A DNA stretch of 38,267 bases. Origin: an uncultured bacterium (GTDB lineage: Bacteria; CSSED10-310; CAZUFC01). Shown piece after piece: positions 1-31,828 of this stretch. A program made the position numbers and the translations under genes. The notes under the pieces are model-generated. The model made no database searches. It saw only the letters and a list, made by a program, of their open reading frames with translations, and was not told the DNA's origin. The first letter of the stretch is position 1. The number at the start of each line of letters is the position of its first letter. Location of the stretch: the NCBI GenBank assembly GCA_964619725.1, contig CAZUFC010000087.1, forward strand, positions 1-38,267, written 5' to 3'.

Positions 1-51
1 ACCTGGCGTAATCTCGATATGCTTATCAATGATTTTTGTCGTCACGCTCAT
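1..51 (-). CDS. 5' fragment of probable DUF433-family protein (runs off window)
   Basis: Minus strand from ATG at 51 reads MSVTTKIIDKHIEITPG to the window edge. HIEITPG resembles the DUF433 N-terminus that precedes GGKP. Only 17 codons are visible. Confidence 0.45.
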   Translation of the reverse strand, partial: MSVTTKIIDKHIEITPG

Positions 52-178
52 CTCCAACGCCGGTTTGATCAGTCCCAAAAGAACATTTCTTCTGATGGAA
101 AACAACTGTTGCGTTTTACTTTGTAATTCTGATATGGATAAACGCTGGAACAGGGTGTTCCTTTGGGGTAAAGATAAC

Positions 179-7132: not shown

Positions 7133-7555
7133 TTAATCCATAAGTTCTTTCCACATGGCCCTTTCGATTACGCTGATCAGTTCGTTTATCCTTTGCCTGG
7201 ATTCTATAATCGTATCAAGTATGGCCCTTAACGGCTCCATGCGGGATTCGGATAATGAACCCAAAGCCACCTTCTCCATGTTCCAATTCGGGAATATTCT
7301 TTGATTAGCGTTGTCTTCCGCATTTAACAGCAGCACGTCCGTATGACGTTCGTCATTCACGATTTTCCTGTAAAGTTCATCGATTTTCTCGTGAGGCCCT
7401 TCGATTACTTGAAAAAACAACCTGCCGCTGGTCATCAATACGCCCGTTATGTCGTTCTTTTCGTTATCCCTGGCGGATTGCTTTACAAGGTCGTTTATCT
7501 CTTCCAAAGTCAATTCCCGATTGTAACGGCTGATGTATTTTAATCGTTTCAACAT
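7133..7555 (-). CDS. Stand-alone BLUF blue-light photoreceptor (140 aa)
   Basis: Y7, N31, ITGVL, FFQVIEG (Q49), DERH, W91-x-M93. Start at ATG 7555 preceded by GGAGGA. Confidence 0.93.
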   Translation of the reverse strand: MLKRLKYISRYNRELTLEEINDLVKQSARDNEKNDITGVLMTSGRLFFQVIEGPHEKIDELYRKIVNDERHTDVLLLNAEDNANQRIFPNWNMEKVALGSLSESRMEPLRAILDTIIESRQRINELISVIERAMWKELMD

Positions 7556-7722
7556 TTTCCATTCCTCCTTTAAAATTGAACCACTCACTCCTTCCTACCA
7601 AATATCCGTTCAATGGTCAATATCTGTCGAAAATAGGAGATTGGAAAACTATAAGCGGTTTTTTGAAAGACGGCTTCTGCCGATGCCGGAATAATTGGCC
7701 ATTGTGTGCCGAAGAATTATCC

Positions 7723-7761
7723 TTCACATTTGTTGACAAACTTTAGACAAAATTTTATCCT
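7723..7761 (+). promoter_or_regulatory. Sigma-70 promoter overlapped by CarH/LitR-type TnnACA direct-repeat operator
   Basis: TTGACA (7733-7738), 17 bp, TATCCT (7756-7761). TnnACA units at 7723 (TTCACA), 7733 (TTGACA) and 7744 (TAGACA), spaced 10-11 bp. Confidence 0.75.
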
Positions 7762-7821
7762 GTTAAAAGCTCCGAAAAGCGGCATGAGCAAATACGGAAA
7801 ACTGCGACAAGGAAAAAAATA

Positions 7822-8751
7822 ATGACGAACAAATTCTCAATTAAAATTGCATCGCTCAGATCGGGTTTGACGACTCACGTCATCAGAGTCTGGGAAAAGA
7901 GATACGGAGCGGTTAAACCTGAAAGAACCTCCACGAACCGACGCATATATTCGGAAGAAGAAATCGAACGGCTGAGGTTGTTGAACAAAGCGGTGAAAGC
8001 GGGATACAGCATCGGACGAATTGCCGAACTGGATACCAAAGAAGTAATCAAATTATTGATGAAAGACGATACGGAACTGCGCAATCGCGAAATTACCCCT
8101 GAAGATGCTGGAAAGGAGGAGGCGGCTGATGGATTCTTCAAGGAGGCTTTCGATCACGTGGAAAGCCTTAATTCAGAAGGACTAAAGGCGACCCTCACGC
8201 AAGCTGAAATGCAATTGGCGCGACCGGTCTTGATCGATCAGGTCGTTGTTCCCATATTGCAAAAAATAGGCGAAAGCTGGCGTGAAGGAGAAATTAAAAT
8301 ACTCCATGAACATAAAGCTATTGAAACTATAAGAAATGCCCTGCAATCCATGACCGTTTCACAGTCCTCTTTTTCGGATTCCGCAAAAACAATCGTATTC
8401 GCCGTTCCTGCCAAGCATTTCCATGACCTGGGAGCTTTGATCGCTGCAGTTTCCGCTATCTCAGAAGGCTGGAAAGCCGAATTCCTGGGACCTAATCTTC
8501 CGGCTGAAGAAATCGCCGCTGCTGCCCTCATGTTGAAAGCCAGAATTGCTGCCGTCAGCATAGTCTATCCGGAAAACGATGCCGAAACTATGGCTGAATT
8601 GAAAAAACTAAGGCAATATCTGCCCGAAGATATTGAAATGATCGTCGGCGGAAGAGCCGCCGCCTCCTATTCCAAAATCCTCGATGATCTAGGCATCAAA
8701 ATAATTCCGGACATGCCGGCCTTTCGATTATACCTCTCCTCATTGTCATGA
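7822..8751 (+). CDS. carH: MerR-family adenosylcobalamin-dependent photoreceptor repressor (CarH/LitR-like)
   Basis: MerR HTH with RVWEKRY, W-x9-EH motif (WREGEIKILHEH), B12-binding Rossmann domain with HFHDLG, LGPNLP and IVGG. Confidence 0.85.
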   Translation: MTNKFSIKIASLRSGLTTHVIRVWEKRYGAVKPERTSTNRRIYSEEEIERLRLLNKAVKAGYSIGRIAELDTKEVIKLLMKDDTELRNREITPEDAGKEEAADGFFKEAFDHVESLNSEGLKATLTQAEMQLARPVLIDQVVVPILQKIGESWREGEIKILHEHKAIETIRNALQSMTVSQSSFSDSAKTIVFAVPAKHFHDLGALIAAVSAISEGWKAEFLGPNLPAEEIAAAALMLKARIAAVSIVYPENDAETMAELKKLRQYLPEDIEMIVGGRAAASYSKILDDLGIKIIPDMPAFRLYLSSLS

Positions 8752-8756
8752 TTGAG

Positions 8757-8898
8757 TCATTTTGATAGTGTCTCATTTTGATAGTCAACTCCGGTCAGGT
8801 GTGACCAGGCATGCTGATTTAAAATGAGTTTTTGAACAAGCGCTGTTTCATTCAATAAAATCGGGTGAACGCGTGAAGAAAAAGCTATCAAAATGAGA
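8757..8898. promoter_or_regulatory. Repeated activator-binding (enhancer-like) sites, unit 1
   Basis: TCATTTTGATAG at 8757-8768 and 8773-8784; inverted copy CTATCAAAATGAGA at 8885-8898. Confidence 0.7.
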
Positions 8899-8984
8899 GA
8901 AAATATTATGGCTGAAAGGGAATGAATTTCGTCAAATATTCTTGAACCATTCCAGAACAATGGTTTGTACAGAAACAGAATAAC

Positions 8985-9000
8985 AGGTATGATAATTGCT
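8985..9000 (+). promoter_or_regulatory. Sigma-54 (-24/-12) promoter 1
   Basis: AGGTATGATAATTGCT, with GG 8986-8987, N10, GC 8998-8999; about 90 bp downstream of the proximal site. Confidence 0.65.
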
Positions 9001-9010
9001 ACTGAGAGAG

Positions 9011-9346
9011 GACGGCCTCTAAAGCCGCAAGGCGAATGAATTGGGGAATTCGGGGGTTATCAAAATTCCGGGAAACAGGGAGGCAGGCAAAGAGGCAGAA
9101 ACGAGAGGCGCAGAGAGTGAAAACGGAAATCGAAAGCAAAAGGTTAAAGCGAACGTGGGACAGTATGCTGAAAGCGAAAAGCGGAGCTGACGAGAGGTTG
9201 ACGGATTGATTAATAGATGGACTGATCATGATTAGATCGAATGGAGACGTTTCATAAACAGGCAGGAACCGCAAAGCTCTGCCTCCCGATTCGCCGGAAT
9301 TGCAATTCATTAATGAGAGCCATTCCATAATCTCGAAAAGAGATTA
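9011..9346 (+). ncRNA. Candidate structured non-coding RNA 1 (long closing stem, purine-rich interior)
   Basis: Nested pairings 9035-9043/9303-9311, 9064-9071/9294-9301 and 9078-9087/9278-9287; GCC-GCAA-GGC hairpin 9024-9033; 3' hairpin 9328-9346; begins just after a sigma-54 motif. Confidence 0.5.
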
Positions 9347-9395
9347 AAGGGTCGATGCTGGACTGGCGCTGCGGTTAAAGAATTTTTTTCTATTC

Positions 9396-9450
9396 AGTGG
9401 CTGTCCAGCATTAAATTTTGAATCGAGATTCGAGTTTATGGACAGACACT
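9396..9450 (+). repeat. 55-bp MITE/REP-like element A
   Basis: AGTGGCTGTCCA...TGGACAGACACT terminal inverted repeats; close copies at 30474-30528 (reverse) and 31978-32032. Confidence 0.85.
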
Positions 9451-9478
9451 ATCTAAAATGGAGACCTCCAACCCGCCG

Positions 9479-9604
9479 CTATCATTTTGATAGAATTCTT
9501 CAGAGTCAATCAAAATCATATAAAATGTGTTTAAATCAAAGCGTAATAATAATAAACTTAAAAAGCAGCCCAATTTAGCCGAAATAAAGCTATCAAGATG
9601 ATAG
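9479..9604. promoter_or_regulatory. Repeated activator-binding (enhancer-like) sites, unit 2
   Basis: Palindromes CTATCATTTTGATAG 9479-9493 and CTATCAAGATGATAG 9590-9604. Confidence 0.72.
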
Positions 9605-9681
9605 ATTTGTTGAAGCGCTTCAAATGAAGAAATAGTGAAGAAATAAACGCCGGCGGTAATCTGAGAGGACGGTGGGAAATA

Positions 9682-9697
9682 TGGTATGGAAATTGCT
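9682..9697 (+). promoter_or_regulatory. Sigma-54 (-24/-12) promoter 2
   Basis: TGGTATGGAAATTGCT, with GG 9683-9684, N10, GC 9695-9696. Confidence 0.72.
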
Positions 9698-9707
9698 TCT
9701 CATAAAG

Positions 9708-10054
9708 CGTGATATGTTGGACGAAGGGGTCTTAAGTCGGATTCCAGGAACGGGAAAAAGTTAAGAAGGTTTTATTGAAGTCAAGATCATCATAAAGTAA
9801 AAAGGTCAGGGAATGAAGAGTCATAATAATATAGAAGTTTCATGTGCAGCCGGCGCGGTCCAGTCTCACAACACCGGCAATATAATTCCAAGACCGATCT
9901 TCGTCCAAGCCTTTCAAAAAGAAGCCATTCAATAAAAGCCTTCACGCGCGCCGCGCCGGTTGAGCACATATATGAAAGCCTGTGGAGCAGCACAGCATTA
10001 ATTGGGATTATTTTTGTGCCAGGCGCTCCATATTCGCAAGGCCTATCCTTTTTT
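9708..10054 (+). ncRNA. Candidate structured non-coding RNA 2 with three crossing long-range helices
   Basis: Pairings 9717-9733/9890-9908, 9765-9779/9928-9943 and 9838-9858/9951-9977; 3' hairpin 9981-10032; T6 at 10049-10054. Confidence 0.55.
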
Positions 10055-10091
10055 GCCTTAAGAAAAATTCGCCGTTTATGGACAGTCACTA
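10055..10091 (+). repeat. Partial copy of the repeat family (element B internal end joined to an element A-type terminus)
   Basis: GCCTTAAGAAAAATTCGCCGTTTATGGACAGTCACTA matches parts of 30474-30676 and 31830-32032. Its terminal CTA is the TAG stop of the regulator gene. Confidence 0.7.
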
Positions 10092-11456
10092 ATTAAGTTT
10101 GTAGCGTTTAATTTTTCTGTAGAGAGTAGCCTCACCTATACTGAGAATTTTCGCCGCTTTGCGTCGATTACCTTGAGCTCTTTTCAGAGCATCGATGATG
10201 GCTCTTTTTTCGTAAGCTTCAATTGAGCCTTCTTTAAGCATGATCATACCGTCGTTTTGTTTATTGGGATCGATTTGAGAGAAGCGGATTCTTTCTGGGA
10301 GGTCTTCGGGATTAATGATTTCGCCGGAGCTGAGCACGATGGCGCTTTCGACGGAATTTTCAAGTTCTCTGACGTTCCCGGGCCAGTAGTAATCATGGAA
10401 TATTTGGAAGGCCTGATCGGAGAATTTTTTTTGAACGTTGTTCTGTCTGCAGAACATATTAAGGAAGTAGTCGATGAGGGGAACGATGTCTTCTTTTCTG
10501 TCTCTGAGCGGAGGGAGTTTAATTTGAACGACGTTAAGGCGATAGAAGAGGTCTTCCCTGAATTCGTTGGTTTTCATTTTTTCTTCCAGGTCGCATTTAG
10601 CGGCGGATATTAAGCGAGATTTAACGGGGAAGACGTCGACGCTGCCGACGGGGCGGACTTCTTTTTCCTGAAGGACTCTGAGCAGCGAAGCCTGAGCGCT
10701 GAAGGGCAGATGATCGACTTCATCCAGGAAGACGGTGCCGTCGCCTGCTGAGCGGAAGAGCCCCTTGGTGGAATGAACGGCGCCGGTAAAAGCGCCTTTG
10801 GTATGGCCGAAGAGTTCAGATTCGATAAGATTAGGATTAACTGCGCCGCAGTCGATAGGGAGGAAGGGCTGTTTTTTTCTGTTGCTGAGATTATGAATGG
10901 CTTTTGCGACGAGTTCTTTACCTGTGCCTGATTCGCCCTGGATAAGAATGGAATTGGATTTCGGGGCCACTTTCATAATCATATTGAAAATGCGGTTCAT
11001 GGAAGGGGATGAGCCGATAATATTATCGAAATGGACGGCTGCCTCTGTTTCTCGATTGAGATGGAGGTTATGTCTTTCAGTAGCTTTGTATCGACAAGCT
11101 CTTAAGACTCTCTCCAGGATAATTTCCGGGTGCACGGGTTTTTCAAGATAGTCGAAGATGCCTTTTTTCATCAATCTGACGGCTGAGTCGATGCTTCCGT
11201 ATCCTGTCAGGATCAGGACAGCGGTTTGGGGGGTTTCTTCCAGGATTTTATTGACGAGTTCTTCGCCCGTCATTTCGTCCATGCGTAGATCTACGATGAC
11301 GGCATGAAAATAGTAAGAGCTGATTTTTTCCAGGGCTTCATAACCGTTGACTGCCGTTTGAACGACAAAGGGTTCGTCATCGAAAATTCTGGTTAAAAGA
11401 CGTCGTATGCTGGAATCGTCGTCAACCACAAGGATATTATATTTTTCTTTTTTCAT
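10089..11456 (-). CDS. Sigma-54-dependent response regulator (NtrC/AtoC family: REC-AAA+-Fis HTH)
   Basis: VVDDD...VDLRM...LTG...KP receiver, [36 protein letters not shown]-terminal TLYRKI. Confidence 0.95.
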
Positions 11457-11536
11457 AACTGTCGCTCACGAAAAAAAATTTATCACGAAACTCCAATAAT
11501 AAATGAAGCTGAAGACGCTTAATACGGAGAATCTTT

Positions 11537-11740
11537 TTATAAACAGTTGACCTCTTCAATTTTCGACAAACATGACCAGTTGCAATCCCAGTTGTCGATA
11601 TCATGAAATCGGGGATTATCGCAGGAAACGCTTTTTATTTTTTTCTGACCGTTTTGAATCATCCATTCGACGATCAAAACGGCATCCCGGTCGCATTCAG
11701 AACAATGAAAACGTTTGATTTCGCATCGTTTCATGTTCAT
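11537..11740 (-). CDS. Small Cys-rich protein (67 aa), possible metal-binding
   Basis: GGAGG Shine-Dalgarno upstream; CSEC...SCDNP...CNWSC; co-oriented upstream of the regulator. Confidence 0.65.
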   Translation of the reverse strand: MNMKRCEIKRFHCSECDRDAVLIVEWMIQNGQKKIKSVSCDNPRFHDIDNWDCNWSCLSKIEEVNCL

Positions 11741-11839
11741 TTTTTTATCCTCCCTTCGTCAATATCGGTTCTGAGGAAGGCTTATTTCAACAGAGAGGTA
11801 AGCGGTAATCCAGAGCAGAAAACCAACCCATCCTTTTCA

Positions 11840-11868
11840 ATTTTATAATAAAAGGTCATAATTTTCAA
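11840..11868 (-). promoter_or_regulatory. Sigma-70 promoter for the Cys-rich gene and regulator
   Basis: Minus strand TTGAAA, 17 bp, TAAAAT; AT-rich context lowers specificity. Confidence 0.45.
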
Positions 11869-12044
11869 AGATTCTGCAACCAGTGACAGCACGGATCATC
11901 ACGGACAAGAGAAGAAGCGATGCGCTAAAATTATAGCCTCATTTGATTTTTTCTGCTTTTCATGTTGCGTCAGGAGCTCAGGGTAAGATATAGATTGAAG
12001 GGTGGAATGCACAGGTAATAGATTTATTCAAAGGAACGCGGAGC

Positions 12045-13400
12045 ATGAATCGAGACAGGATAAAAATTTTAAACAAGGGAAAAGAGCAATCCGGAAGATA
12101 TGTATTATATTGGATGCAGCAGGCTCAAAGAGCATCCTTCAATCATGCGCTTGAGTATGGGATAGAGCGGGCGAATGAACTGGATAAACCGCTGATCGTT
12201 TTATTTTGTATAACGGAAAATTATCCGTCTGCGAACTCAAGGCATTACCGTTTTATGTTGGAGGGATTAGACGATGCAGCAAAAAAGCTGTCAGAACGCG
12301 GTATAAGATTGGTATTCAAAAAAGGAGAGCCGGCGGAAGCTGCAGCGGATTTAAGCGAAGAGGCTTGCCTGGCGGTAACGGATTGCGGATATACTCGAAC
12401 ACAGAGGAAATGGCGCGACAGCGCCTCATCATTGATGAGATGTCCTTTTATCATGGTTGAGAGCGACGTAATCGTTCCGGTGGAGCGGGCGAGCGAGAAG
12501 GAAGAATTCGCCGCTCACACCATTCGAAAGAAGATAAACCGTTTACGGAAGGAATATTTGACGCGGGTGGAAGAAATCCCGGTCAGGCGTGATTCTTTAA
12601 ACTTGCTCATTGATAGAGAAGGCGTTTTCGCAGAAGTTCCTTCGCTCGGGGAGCTGAAGGAAATAGACAGGAGGGTCTCGGAAAGCAGATTTTACAAGGG
12701 CGGCGCTTATCAGGCGGAAAAATTACTGGAAGAATTCATCGGGGATAAATTGCGGCATTATGCGGAACAAAGGAATGATCCGAACCGGGACAATTTGTCG
12801 AAAATGAGCCCTTATTTGCATTTCGGTCAGATTTCTTCGGCATATATTGCGTTGAAAGTTTTAGAGCATGGTGGGGAAGGAGTGGAAGAATACCTGGAGG
12901 AGCTGATAATCCGTCGCGAATTAAGCATGAATTTCGTTCATTATAATCCTCATTACGATACTTTTGAAGGATTGCCGGATTGGGTGAAGAAGACATTGAT
13001 CCGGCATGCGGGAGATGAGCGGGAGTATGAGTATGATTATGAAGCCTGGGAAGCTGCTGAAACGCATGATCCTTACTGGAATGCGGCGCAGAAAGAGATG
13101 ATGATAACGGGGAAGATGCACGGCTATATGAGGATGTATTGGGGGAAGAAAATTCTGGAATGGACATCCGGTCCTGAGGAGGCATATCGGATTCTGATAA
13201 GATTAAACGACAAATATGAGTTGGACGGCCGCGATCCGAACGGATATGCGGGAGCAGCGTGGTGTTTCGGAAAGCATGACCGGGCGTGGAAAGAGAGACC
13301 GGTATACGGAAAAATCCGTTATATGAACGACAGGGGTCTCAAGCGCAAATTCGATGCCGATGCTTACGTGCGCCGGATGAATGAATTGGAAAAGACGTGA
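12045..13400 (+). CDS. phrB: Class II CPD photolyase
   Basis: VLYWM..AQR...NHAL, LSKMSPYLHFGQIS, IIRRELS.NF, MHGYMRMYWGKKILEW, DGRDPNGY. Confidence 0.95.
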   Translation: MNRDRIKILNKGKEQSGRYVLYWMQQAQRASFNHALEYGIERANELDKPLIVLFCITENYPSANSRHYRFMLEGLDDAAKKLSERGIRLVFKKGEPAEAAADLSEEACLAVTDCGYTRTQRKWRDSASSLMRCPFIMVESDVIVPVERASEKEEFAAHTIRKKINRLRKEYLTRVEEIPVRRDSLNLLIDREGVFAEVPSLGELKEIDRRVSESRFYKGGAYQAEKLLEEFIGDKLRHYAEQRNDPNRDNLSKMSPYLHFGQISSAYIALKVLEHGGEGVEEYLEELIIRRELSMNFVHYNPHYDTFEGLPDWVKKTLIRHAGDEREYEYDYEAWEAAETHDPYWNAAQKEMMITGKMHGYMRMYWGKKILEWTSGPEEAYRILIRLNDKYELDGRDPNGYAGAAWCFGKHDRAWKERPVYGKIRYMNDRGLKRKFDADAYVRRMNELEKT

Positions 13401-30998: not shown

Positions 30999-31397
30999 AT
31001 GGCGAAAACTGCAACAGACTTGAAAGAGGCCGGCTGGCCGGAAGAAGAAATGCGGAAATACGATCCGTGGAAACATTTAAAACGGCACAAAAGGGATCCG
31101 GCCATGCGTCTTCGTCGCGAGCGCGCATTGAAAGTCGCCCGAAGAGCGGCCAGAATTTTGAAAATGGAGTTTGAAGCAGACCGCGTCGTGATTTTCGGTT
31201 CTCTGGCCCATAACGCCTGGTTTACGCCTCGCTCCGACATTGACATCTATGTCGAGGGAATTCCAGCCGGCCTTTTTTTCAAGGCGGAAGCTGCTATTGA
31301 AAATATTGATCCTGAATTCAGGATCGATCTTATCCATGAAGAGGAATGTACCGGCGTTATGTTGAAAAAAATTGACGAAGAGGGTTTAGAATTGTGA
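30999..31397 (+). CDS. Minimal nucleotidyltransferase (MNT) antitoxin
   Basis: FGS-x10-DID motif, third Asp in IDL; GAGGA RBS. Confidence 0.9.
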   Translation: MAKTATDLKEAGWPEEEMRKYDPWKHLKRHKRDPAMRLRRERALKVARRAARILKMEFEADRVVIFGSLAHNAWFTPRSDIDIYVEGIPAGLFFKAEAAIENIDPEFRIDLIHEEECTGVMLKKIDEEGLEL

Positions 31398-31828
31398 ATG
31401 AATGGCGGTCCGGAGAAGCCGAACGCATTTCAAATGAATTGCGCCTGGTGAATGAAATTGTAACTCAAGTTCAATCGGACTGGGAAAAATTCGTCCGCAC
31501 AGGTGATGATGCTTATCTTAAAGCCACGGCCTATGATCTTCATGGGTTCTATACAGGATTAGAAAAGATATTCAAAACAGTTGCCGGTTCGATAGATAAT
31601 GAAATCCCAACCGGAGAAACCTGGCACAAAGACTTAATTGAACAAATGACCAAAGAATTCCCGGAAATACGTCCCGGTTTGATTTCTGTCAGCAGCAGAG
31701 AACTATTGGATGAATATCTTCGTTTCAGGCACAGAATACGAAACATATATTCGTTCAACATTGTCCCGACTCTGGTCAGGGACCTTATTCAAAAACTTCC
31801 TTCCATATTCAGTCAAATAAAAACATAA
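31394..31828 (+). CDS. HEPN (HepT-like) toxin
   Basis: LHGFYTGLEKIF, WHKDL, FRHRIRNIY; GTGA overlap with the MNT gene. Confidence 0.87.
   Translation: MNEWRSGEAERISNELRLVNEIVTQVQSDWEKFVRTGDDAYLKATAYDLHGFYTGLEKIFKTVAGSIDNEIPTGETWHKDLIEQMTKEFPEIRPGLISVSSRELLDEYLRFRHRIRNIYSFNIVPTLVRDLIQKLPSIFSQIKT

Follow-up and report, generated by a model that had tools for sequence, protein, structure and literature searches.

The 38,267-nucleotide contig CAZUFC010000087.1 (here called the window, at its full length) of an uncultured bacterium of the CSSED10-310 lineage (assembly GCA_964619725.1) carries, between positions 9708 and about 10050 of its forward strand, three pairs of mutually complementary segments, A/A', B/B' and C/C', which follow each other in the order A B C A' B' C' directly downstream of a strong match to the Sigma-54 (-24/-12) promoter. 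Judged by the sequence, the segment is probably a Sigma-54-dependent and regulator-controlled transcript, here named T2, without a supported open reading frame (ORF). The explanation that we favour, tentatively and with a probability of roughly 0.4, is that T2 would be an RNA under the control of a response regulator, in which the 3' part pairs with the 5' part at three sites.

The three helices had been proposed in a first-pass annotation of the window, and an inverted-repeat check recovered all of them, with cores that pair perfectly over 10 bp in helix A (9717-9726/9899-9908), 10 bp in helix B (9770-9779/9928-9937) and 9 bp in helix C (9850-9858/9951-9959). Helix A extends to 17 pairs and reaches 9733/9890 via one G.T pair and a 2-nt bulge, and helix B gains five extra pairs (9765-9769/9939-9943) past a 1-nt bulge. 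In the case of helix C, which the annotation had drawn at about 21 bp, the perfect core stands and can be extended to 12 nt at 92% with G.T counted (9847-9858/9951-9962) or to about 19 nt with two interruptions, whereas the full 21 bp requires an internal loop and a 4-nt bulge. The arms indeed come in the same rather than the reversed order, so that each of the three pairs crosses both others. Because independent contigs from three sequencing runs (i.e. three samples) reproduce the sequence with 0, 0 and 1 differences, an assembly artefact is excluded. The coordinates of the arms and of the other features are collected in Table 1.

Table 1. Features of the spacer that carries T2 and of its right-hand neighbour (positions in the window; activator-site distances are relative to the +1 of T2)
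Feature	Position	Strand	Remarks
Regulatory module I (twin)	8757-9000	+	Half-sites, near-palindrome, promoter P1
Presumed transcript T1	9011-9458	+	Purine-rich; ends in palindromic-repeat copies (9324-9371 degenerate, 9390-9458)
Putative distal upstream activator site	9479-9493		CTATCA-N3-TGATAG, exact palindrome, about -222
Putative proximal upstream activator site	9590-9604		CTATCA-N3-TGATAG, exact palindrome, about -111
Perfect 14-nt palindrome	9610-9623		TTGAAGCGCTTCAA; between activator site and promoter
Sigma-54 (-24/-12) promoter P2	9682-9697	+	TGGTATGGAAATTGCT; motif match, implies +1 at about 9708
Arm A (5')	9717-9733	+	Inverted-repeat match
Arm B (5')	9765-9779	+	Inverted-repeat match; B' word CATTCAATAAAA again at 8849-8860
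Arm C (5')	9838-9858	+	Inverted-repeat match; GCCGGCG of C (9849-9855) again at 9649-9655
Arm A' (3')	9890-9908	+	Perfect TATAAT immediately upstream (9881-9886)
Arm B' (3')	9928-9943	+	Inverted-repeat match
Arm C' (3')	9951-9977	+	Inverted-repeat match
Stable 3' hairpin	9981-10032	+	3' strand overlaps start of the MITE fragment
MITE right-end fragment (10022-10082) fused to right arm of palindromic repeat (10074-10096)	10022-10096		Contains T6; abuts stop codon of the activator gene
Predicted Sigma-54-dependent response regulator	10089-11456	-	Receiver, AAA+ Sigma-54 interaction domain, Fis-type helix-turn-helix
MITE, miniature inverted-repeat transposable element; T6, run of six T.

With respect to arm A', the TATAAT just 5' of it lacks a good -35 element, and on the opposite strand a promoter-like site was reported by the scan at 9907-9879.

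A transcription start at about 9708 follows from taking the GC at 9695-9696 as positions -13/-12, and places the +1 9 nt before helix A. The annotation had arrived at the same start, which is backed by the strong promoter match and by the activator sites upstream. P2 has the GG-N10-GC arrangement with TTGC that characterizes the promoters of Sigma-54-controlled small RNAs (sRNAs), and an rpoN gene is present in the genome; the published consensus is TTGGCATNNNNNTTGCT (PMC6615313). The motif GGYAYG-N4-TTGCW has 61 matches in the genome, 43 of which are non-coding, against 2, 8 and 6 non-coding matches in three shuffles, and the stricter TGGYAYG-N4-TTGCW has 14, with P2 among the 10 that are non-coding (three shuffles: 0, 2 and 4). 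A position weight matrix (PWM) built from the genome's own motif sites yielded 158 matches at a cut-off of at least 14 bits: 84 have an ORF of at least 60 aa within 200 nt downstream, another 57 are located within long ORFs, and the other 17 are orphans. The motif can be taken to mark real promoters in this organism because the PWM matches mostly precede ORFs; P2 itself is counted among the 84 solely by virtue of an unsupported ORF of 84 aa. As regards the 17 orphans, i.e. matches without an ORF of at least 60 aa that starts within 200 nt downstream, several are accompanied by long-range stems of at least 9 bp, and they may constitute a set of Sigma-54-dependent non-coding RNAs.

The two exact CTATCA-N3-TGATAG palindromes upstream of P2 are the only copies in the whole 9.17-Mb genome (0.67 expected). 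Their distances from the start fall within the approximately 100-250 bp at which Sigma-54-controlled sRNAs have their palindromic activator sites, and the distal palindrome has a degenerate partner at 9506-9520. A predicted cognate activator, another hallmark of such sRNAs, is encoded next to T2 by the response regulator gene, which is convergent with the presumed transcript. When the species genomes of GTDB were scanned for the palindrome followed after 70-100 nt by the promoter motif, nine loci were recovered, against some four expected by a rough count, and at two of the nine an activator with 44% identity to that of the window stands directly upstream of paired palindromes. These two loci belong to a deltaproteobacterial metagenome-assembled genome and to Dethiosulfatibacter. 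Since the palindrome is thus paired with a related activator in two of nine loci of other genomes, we infer that the neighbouring regulator binds the palindromes, and that it would activate both P2 and a second promoter, P1 (see below); by its sequence, the combination of CTATCA-N3-TGATAG and activator looks like a cross-phylum operator-activator pairing. In the two loci (L036, 4905-5029 when oriented, and L042, 7413-7636) the palindromes of a pair are about 32 bp apart and lie 5' of Sigma-54 promoters, beside the 44%-identical activators. A scan of metagenome contigs with the activator protein returned seven loci, with 40% identity at best, and the palindrome occurred in none of them.

T2 lies in a 1.34-kb ORF-poor spacer between a MerR/B12-binding (CarH-like) gene (7822-8751, + strand) and the response regulator gene, and this spacer holds a second module of similar build. 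Module I consists of two direct half-sites (8757-8785) and a palindrome with one mismatch (8885-8899), at about -240 and -119, followed by promoter P1, a Sigma-54 motif (AGGTATGATAATTGCT, 8985-9000) with a +1 at about 9011. The two modules align in their regulatory parts with a z-score of 3.4 (1 of 200 shuffles), whereas the transcribed parts T1 and T2 have no residual similarity (z-score 0.2; 82 of 200 shuffles), and because the former align and the latter do not, the perfect 9-10-bp matches within T2 persist in sequence that diverges fast. T1 has nested long-range stems (9035-43/9303-11, 9064-71/9294-9301 and 9078-86/9279-87) and an unsupported basic ORF of 57 aa that starts 35 nt past the promoter motif.

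None of the small ORFs (40, 84, 30 and 99 aa in T2, 57 aa in T1, and one more of 109 aa) had a Pfam match below an E-value of 0.09, and the ORFs of 40 and 57 aa had no homologue among 5.8 billion proteins. The region appears non-coding as far as its sequence tells, and the product of T2 is most likely a regulatory RNA. Rfam 15 (which includes C4, Qrr, GlmY/Z, ROOL, GOLLD and OLE) gave no family match for 8700-10400 on either strand at E-values up to 10, in agreement with the annotation, which had recognized no known family; the sole listing was U54 small nucleolar RNA, at 22.5 bits against a gathering score of 40. A search for tRNA and tmRNA genes found none.

The favoured explanation of T2 can be formulated as follows. 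The response regulator would bind the two palindromes and, once bound, activate P2, which would yield T2, a putative regulatory RNA. In the weakly folded 3' part of this RNA the arms A', B' and C' would be exposed, and would match the 5' sites A (+9), B (+57) and C (+130) in the same order, such that the three pairs act as RNA-RNA pairing sites that join the two halves of T2. In cis, the helices would meet as in a three-way junction with linkers of 31 nt (A-B), 31 nt (C-A') and 7 nt (B'-C'), their far ends being joined by B-C (58 nt) and A'-B' (19 nt) in place of hairpin loops, and the threading that this entails should be feasible for a free 3' tail. In trans, pairing between copies of T2 or between processed pieces would follow the multi-site logic of the c4 antisense RNA of phage P1, and would be free of knots. 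Folded on its own, the 3' part (9886-9980) is indeed weak (-12.1 kcal/mol), with the three arms 0.5-0.6 unpaired, and in this model a weak part followed by the stable hairpin has the look of a seed region with a 3' hairpin. The more demanding version, in which all three helices of 15-20 bp form simultaneously and all cross, as a threaded junction of three helices or as a multimer with swapped strands, and in which a two-helix RNA on another contig (C74, see below) belongs to the same class, we consider unlikely; we know of no solved natural precedent for all-crossing helices of 15-20 bp.

Besides this lack of precedent, the statistics of the helices, the folding energies, the absence of relatives and the make-up of the spacer each contribute points that weigh against paired halves of T2. 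The first of these bear on the most serious rival explanation, namely that a Sigma-54 transcript, or a mere regulatory spacer, happens to contain three inverted-repeat pairs in a chance constellation that has no role, which we regard as a substantial possibility, if less than an even one. Locally, coincidence fares badly: three stems of at least 9 bp occurred in 0 of 2000 dinucleotide shuffles of 9708-10054, and two such stems in 27 of 2000. At the level of the genome the picture is different. We searched the 9.17-Mb genome and block-shuffled copies of it for three mutually crossing perfect stems of at least 9 bp within 350 nt, and found 32 loci in the real genome (four of which, on contigs C284, C76, C313 and C55, lie wholly inside repeats) and between 6 and 17 in each of five shuffled genomes (13, 17, 13, 7 and 6). 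Of the 147 null triples that 12 shuffled genomes provided, 4 reach the gapped score of the T2 locus (37.0), and its summed duplex energy (-75.9 kcal/mol) is reached by 7 of 173, spread over 6 of 14 shuffled genomes; within the real genome, a triple inside a 2.4-kb ORF (C7:126556-126899) has an even better energy, -78.7 kcal/mol. Because equal or better triples arise in 6 of 14 shuffled genomes, the helices alone do not exclude chance, and the annotation's statement that three such helices are improbable by chance is borne out locally, yet not at the scale of a genome or a scan. What does set the locus apart is that none of the 147 null triples has an extension score of at least 12 in all three helices, a criterion that was set post hoc, and that arm A begins 9 nt past a +1 whose Sigma-54 motif ranks among the strongest of the genome. 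On average, two genome-equivalents should contain the bare triple pattern about once, which corresponds to roughly 0.002 occurrences per 38-kb window, and the locus was originally chosen because of its helices; in a very large scan, the bare pattern is not evidence on its own.

The background rate of crossing stems is illustrated by the window itself, which has another crossing triple at core level (9, 10 and 9 bp) at 31209-31545, overlapping ORFs beside a gene with a HepT-like toxin domain (31394-31828).

Also to be set against coincidence is a second orphan Sigma-54 unit with the same kind of crossing pairing, on contig C74. The orphan motif (TTTGGCATGGGAATTGCT, - strand, around 40094; unit C74:40093-39862, L043) is followed by some 200 nt of ORF-poor sequence with two perfect 11-bp stems, which cross each other (+16..26/+167..177 and +41..51/+184..194 nt past the motif), and the second of which extends to approximately 14-19 bp and is followed by a run of seven T. 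No local shuffle out of 3000 had two stems of at least 11 bp. The whole genome contains 189 crossing pairs in which both stems are at least 10 bp, against 39-53 in five shuffles, and only two of the 189, namely C74 and the T2 locus, have a Sigma-54 motif at most 150 nt upstream. The estimate for such a coincidence ranges from p of about 0.01 to 0.17 depending on the null model, and one of the two loci is the discovery locus; as support for the pattern this second case is suggestive, not decisive. The C74 RNA had no match in Rfam, and in the phylum it gave one 28-nt match (E-value 0.003) that we take as spurious, with no convincing homologue.

The folding tests are in line with coincidence as well. 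Pseudoknot-free minimum free energies were no better than those of shuffled controls, with a z-score of +0.68 for 9700-10060 and ordinary values of -0.23 (9708-9980), -0.16 and +0.2 for spans of T2; these values concern pseudoknot-free folds only. The helix duplexes have no preference for the transcribed strand, their energies on the transcribed and the other strand being -24.3 and -25.8 (A), -16.2 and -15.9 (B), and -36.1 and -32.1 kcal/mol (C).

No homologous DNA was found in 41 relatives, the sole match in a search of the phylum (14 genomes) was the source genome itself, plasmids and phages gave no homologous DNA match, and the metagenome contigs around the activator (40% identity at best) hold no homologue of the region. 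Paralogues in the genome were likewise absent by nhmmer at E-values up to 10, the loci of CarH-like orthologues in four genomes of the phylum have no similar spacer features, and other sequencing runs supplied near-identical DNA only, whose contigs lack the variation needed for covariation. No RNA run was among the sequencing runs listed.

At the 3' end of T2 the annotation had noted a hairpin followed by T6. The stable hairpin is present, but T6 comes 15 nt after it and inside the MITE fragment, from which the 3' strand of the hairpin also partly derives, and a consensus scan found no canonical intrinsic terminator on the + strand, a feature to be expected of a Sigma-54-controlled sRNA.

According to another rival explanation the pairs are a relic at the level of the DNA, i.e. 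short patches of the spacer that were duplicated within it as inverted copies by template switching or local rearrangement, or recurring protein-binding words. Short exact repeats of at least 10 nt are overrepresented in the spacer (8752-10088) in both orientations, with nine direct (1.7 expected) and ten inverted (2.7 expected). B and C belong to word families of three copies with members outside the transcript: the B' word recurs upstream, outside both transcripts, and the GCCGGCG of arm C recurs outside T2. In addition, indels distinguish the arms, as would be expected of diverged copies, and the two regulatory modules resemble an old tandem duplication of about 700 bp. However, most of the short repeats are activator sites and repeat arms, few being left besides these and local palindromes; three independent inverted patches within 260 nt are, without selection, hardly likelier than chance, and the preserved order is predicted by no mechanism. 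We think a DNA relic quite unlikely.

Two further rivals can be dealt with briefly. That the helices are part of a MITE- or insertion-sequence-type element was a concern that the annotation had itself raised, by naming a known mobile-element end as a finding that would speak against its RNA. In favour, same-orientation copies of GTTTATGGACAG-CACTA flank the region (9434-9456 and 10074-10096), and 10022-10082 is the right end of a MITE. This element of about 147 nt has terminal inverted repeats of about 25 nt (GTTTTTGTCCATAAACGGCGAATTT..., for example in G000 at C122:23978-24150) and 235 BLAST matches, 84 of them of at least 45 nt; it usually abuts a palindromic repeat, with which it has the word GTTTATGGA in common. 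The palindromic repeat, with 12-bp arms (AGTGnCTGTCCA/TGGACAGnCACT) and a 31-nt loop, has 343 BLAST matches genome-wide, many of them at contig ends, and a 65-nt copy (9390-9458) together with the degenerate one adjoins the left side of the helix-bearing part. That part itself (9475-10021) is single copy in the genome by both BLAST and nhmmer and is not the end of an element; the left end of the MITE is absent from it (159 of 300 shuffles score equally), no plasmid or phage matches it, and no transposase or recombinase was found among the 30 large ORFs of the window that were scanned. A mobile element is thereby largely refuted and very improbable, since the region is not a multi-copy sequence with terminal inverted repeats and is repeat-derived in 10022-10096 only. 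Still less probable is an invertible DNA switch with the pairs as inversion sites, for although the three inverted-repeat pairs overlap the promoter-proximal region, they are unrelated to each other in sequence, the scanned ORFs include no recombinase, and the contigs of the three runs, which cannot reveal minority forms, have no strand-changing joints at 9460-10030.

It is of interest to compare T2, read as a regulator-controlled RNA with paired halves, with systems that are already known. Sigma-54-dependent sRNAs with NtrC-type activators include Qrr with LuxO, CrcZ and CrcY with CbrB, and GlmY with GlrR. The T2 locus resembles these in its -24/-12 promoter, its palindromic activator sites 100-250 bp upstream, its adjacent activator gene and the lack of a credible ORF. 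It differs from them in that T2 has no sequence or Rfam match, is much longer than Qrr, lacks a clear terminator, is convergent with the activator gene and has three same-order internal complementarities, and in that it is known here from sequence alone. Loci of this type, in which Sigma-54 and an adjacent activator drive an sRNA, are known, whereas the same-order triple complementarity is not.

In the c4 antisense RNA, the a and b sites are two short sites. T2 is like c4 in having same-order complementarity at multiple sites of one transcript (A B ... A' B') without a knot, and unlike it in having no match to the Rfam model, a third site and longer pairings (15-20 bp), and a location outside a phage immunity operon: icd and ant are lacking, and the surrounding genes are chromosomal housekeeping and sensor genes only. 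For c4 itself, the literature describes that, in the immI operon of P1 and P7, a single transcript carries the antisense segment and its several targets in matching order (PMC8198154). In ROOL, GOLLD and OLE, contacts initially interpreted as tertiary or pseudoknot interactions proved to be intermolecular bridges; these are formed by A-minor contacts and short kissing loops, occur in RNAs of at least 600 nt and are backed by covariation (PMC12286853). They form a precedent for reading the crossing pairs of T2 as intermolecular; T2 differs from them by its long helices, by being represented by a single sequence, and by having no Rfam match. H-type pseudoknots have the order S1-S2-S1'-S2'. Any two helices of T2 share this order, but its stems, at 15-20 bp, are longer than a single helical turn, its loops measure 31-110 nt, and all three helices cross.

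With regard to the gene neighbourhood, the spacer lies amid a light-related cluster (7133-13400), which includes a photolyase and a BLUF gene besides the MerR/B12-binding (CarH-like) regulator. Both Sigma-54 transcripts may be part of a light response.

For genome scans in general, the analysis carries a caution, namely that about every second shuffled 9-Mb genome yields a crossing triple of 9-10-bp stems. If the pairing of T2 is true, it would provide a natural RNA in which all long helices cross each other, a topology that, to our knowledge, occurs in no solved natural RNA, and it would place this fold in a simple and testable circuit, in which a single response regulator would act on a Sigma-54 promoter through two operator palindromes that are unique in the genome, next to genes for blue-light and B12 photoreceptors. 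Even without the fold, the locus offers a clean putative operator-activator assignment (CTATCA-N3-TGATAG) that recurs across phyla, and two presumed orphan Sigma-54 transcripts within a seemingly empty spacer of 1.3 kb, in a phylum of which 14 species have been sampled.
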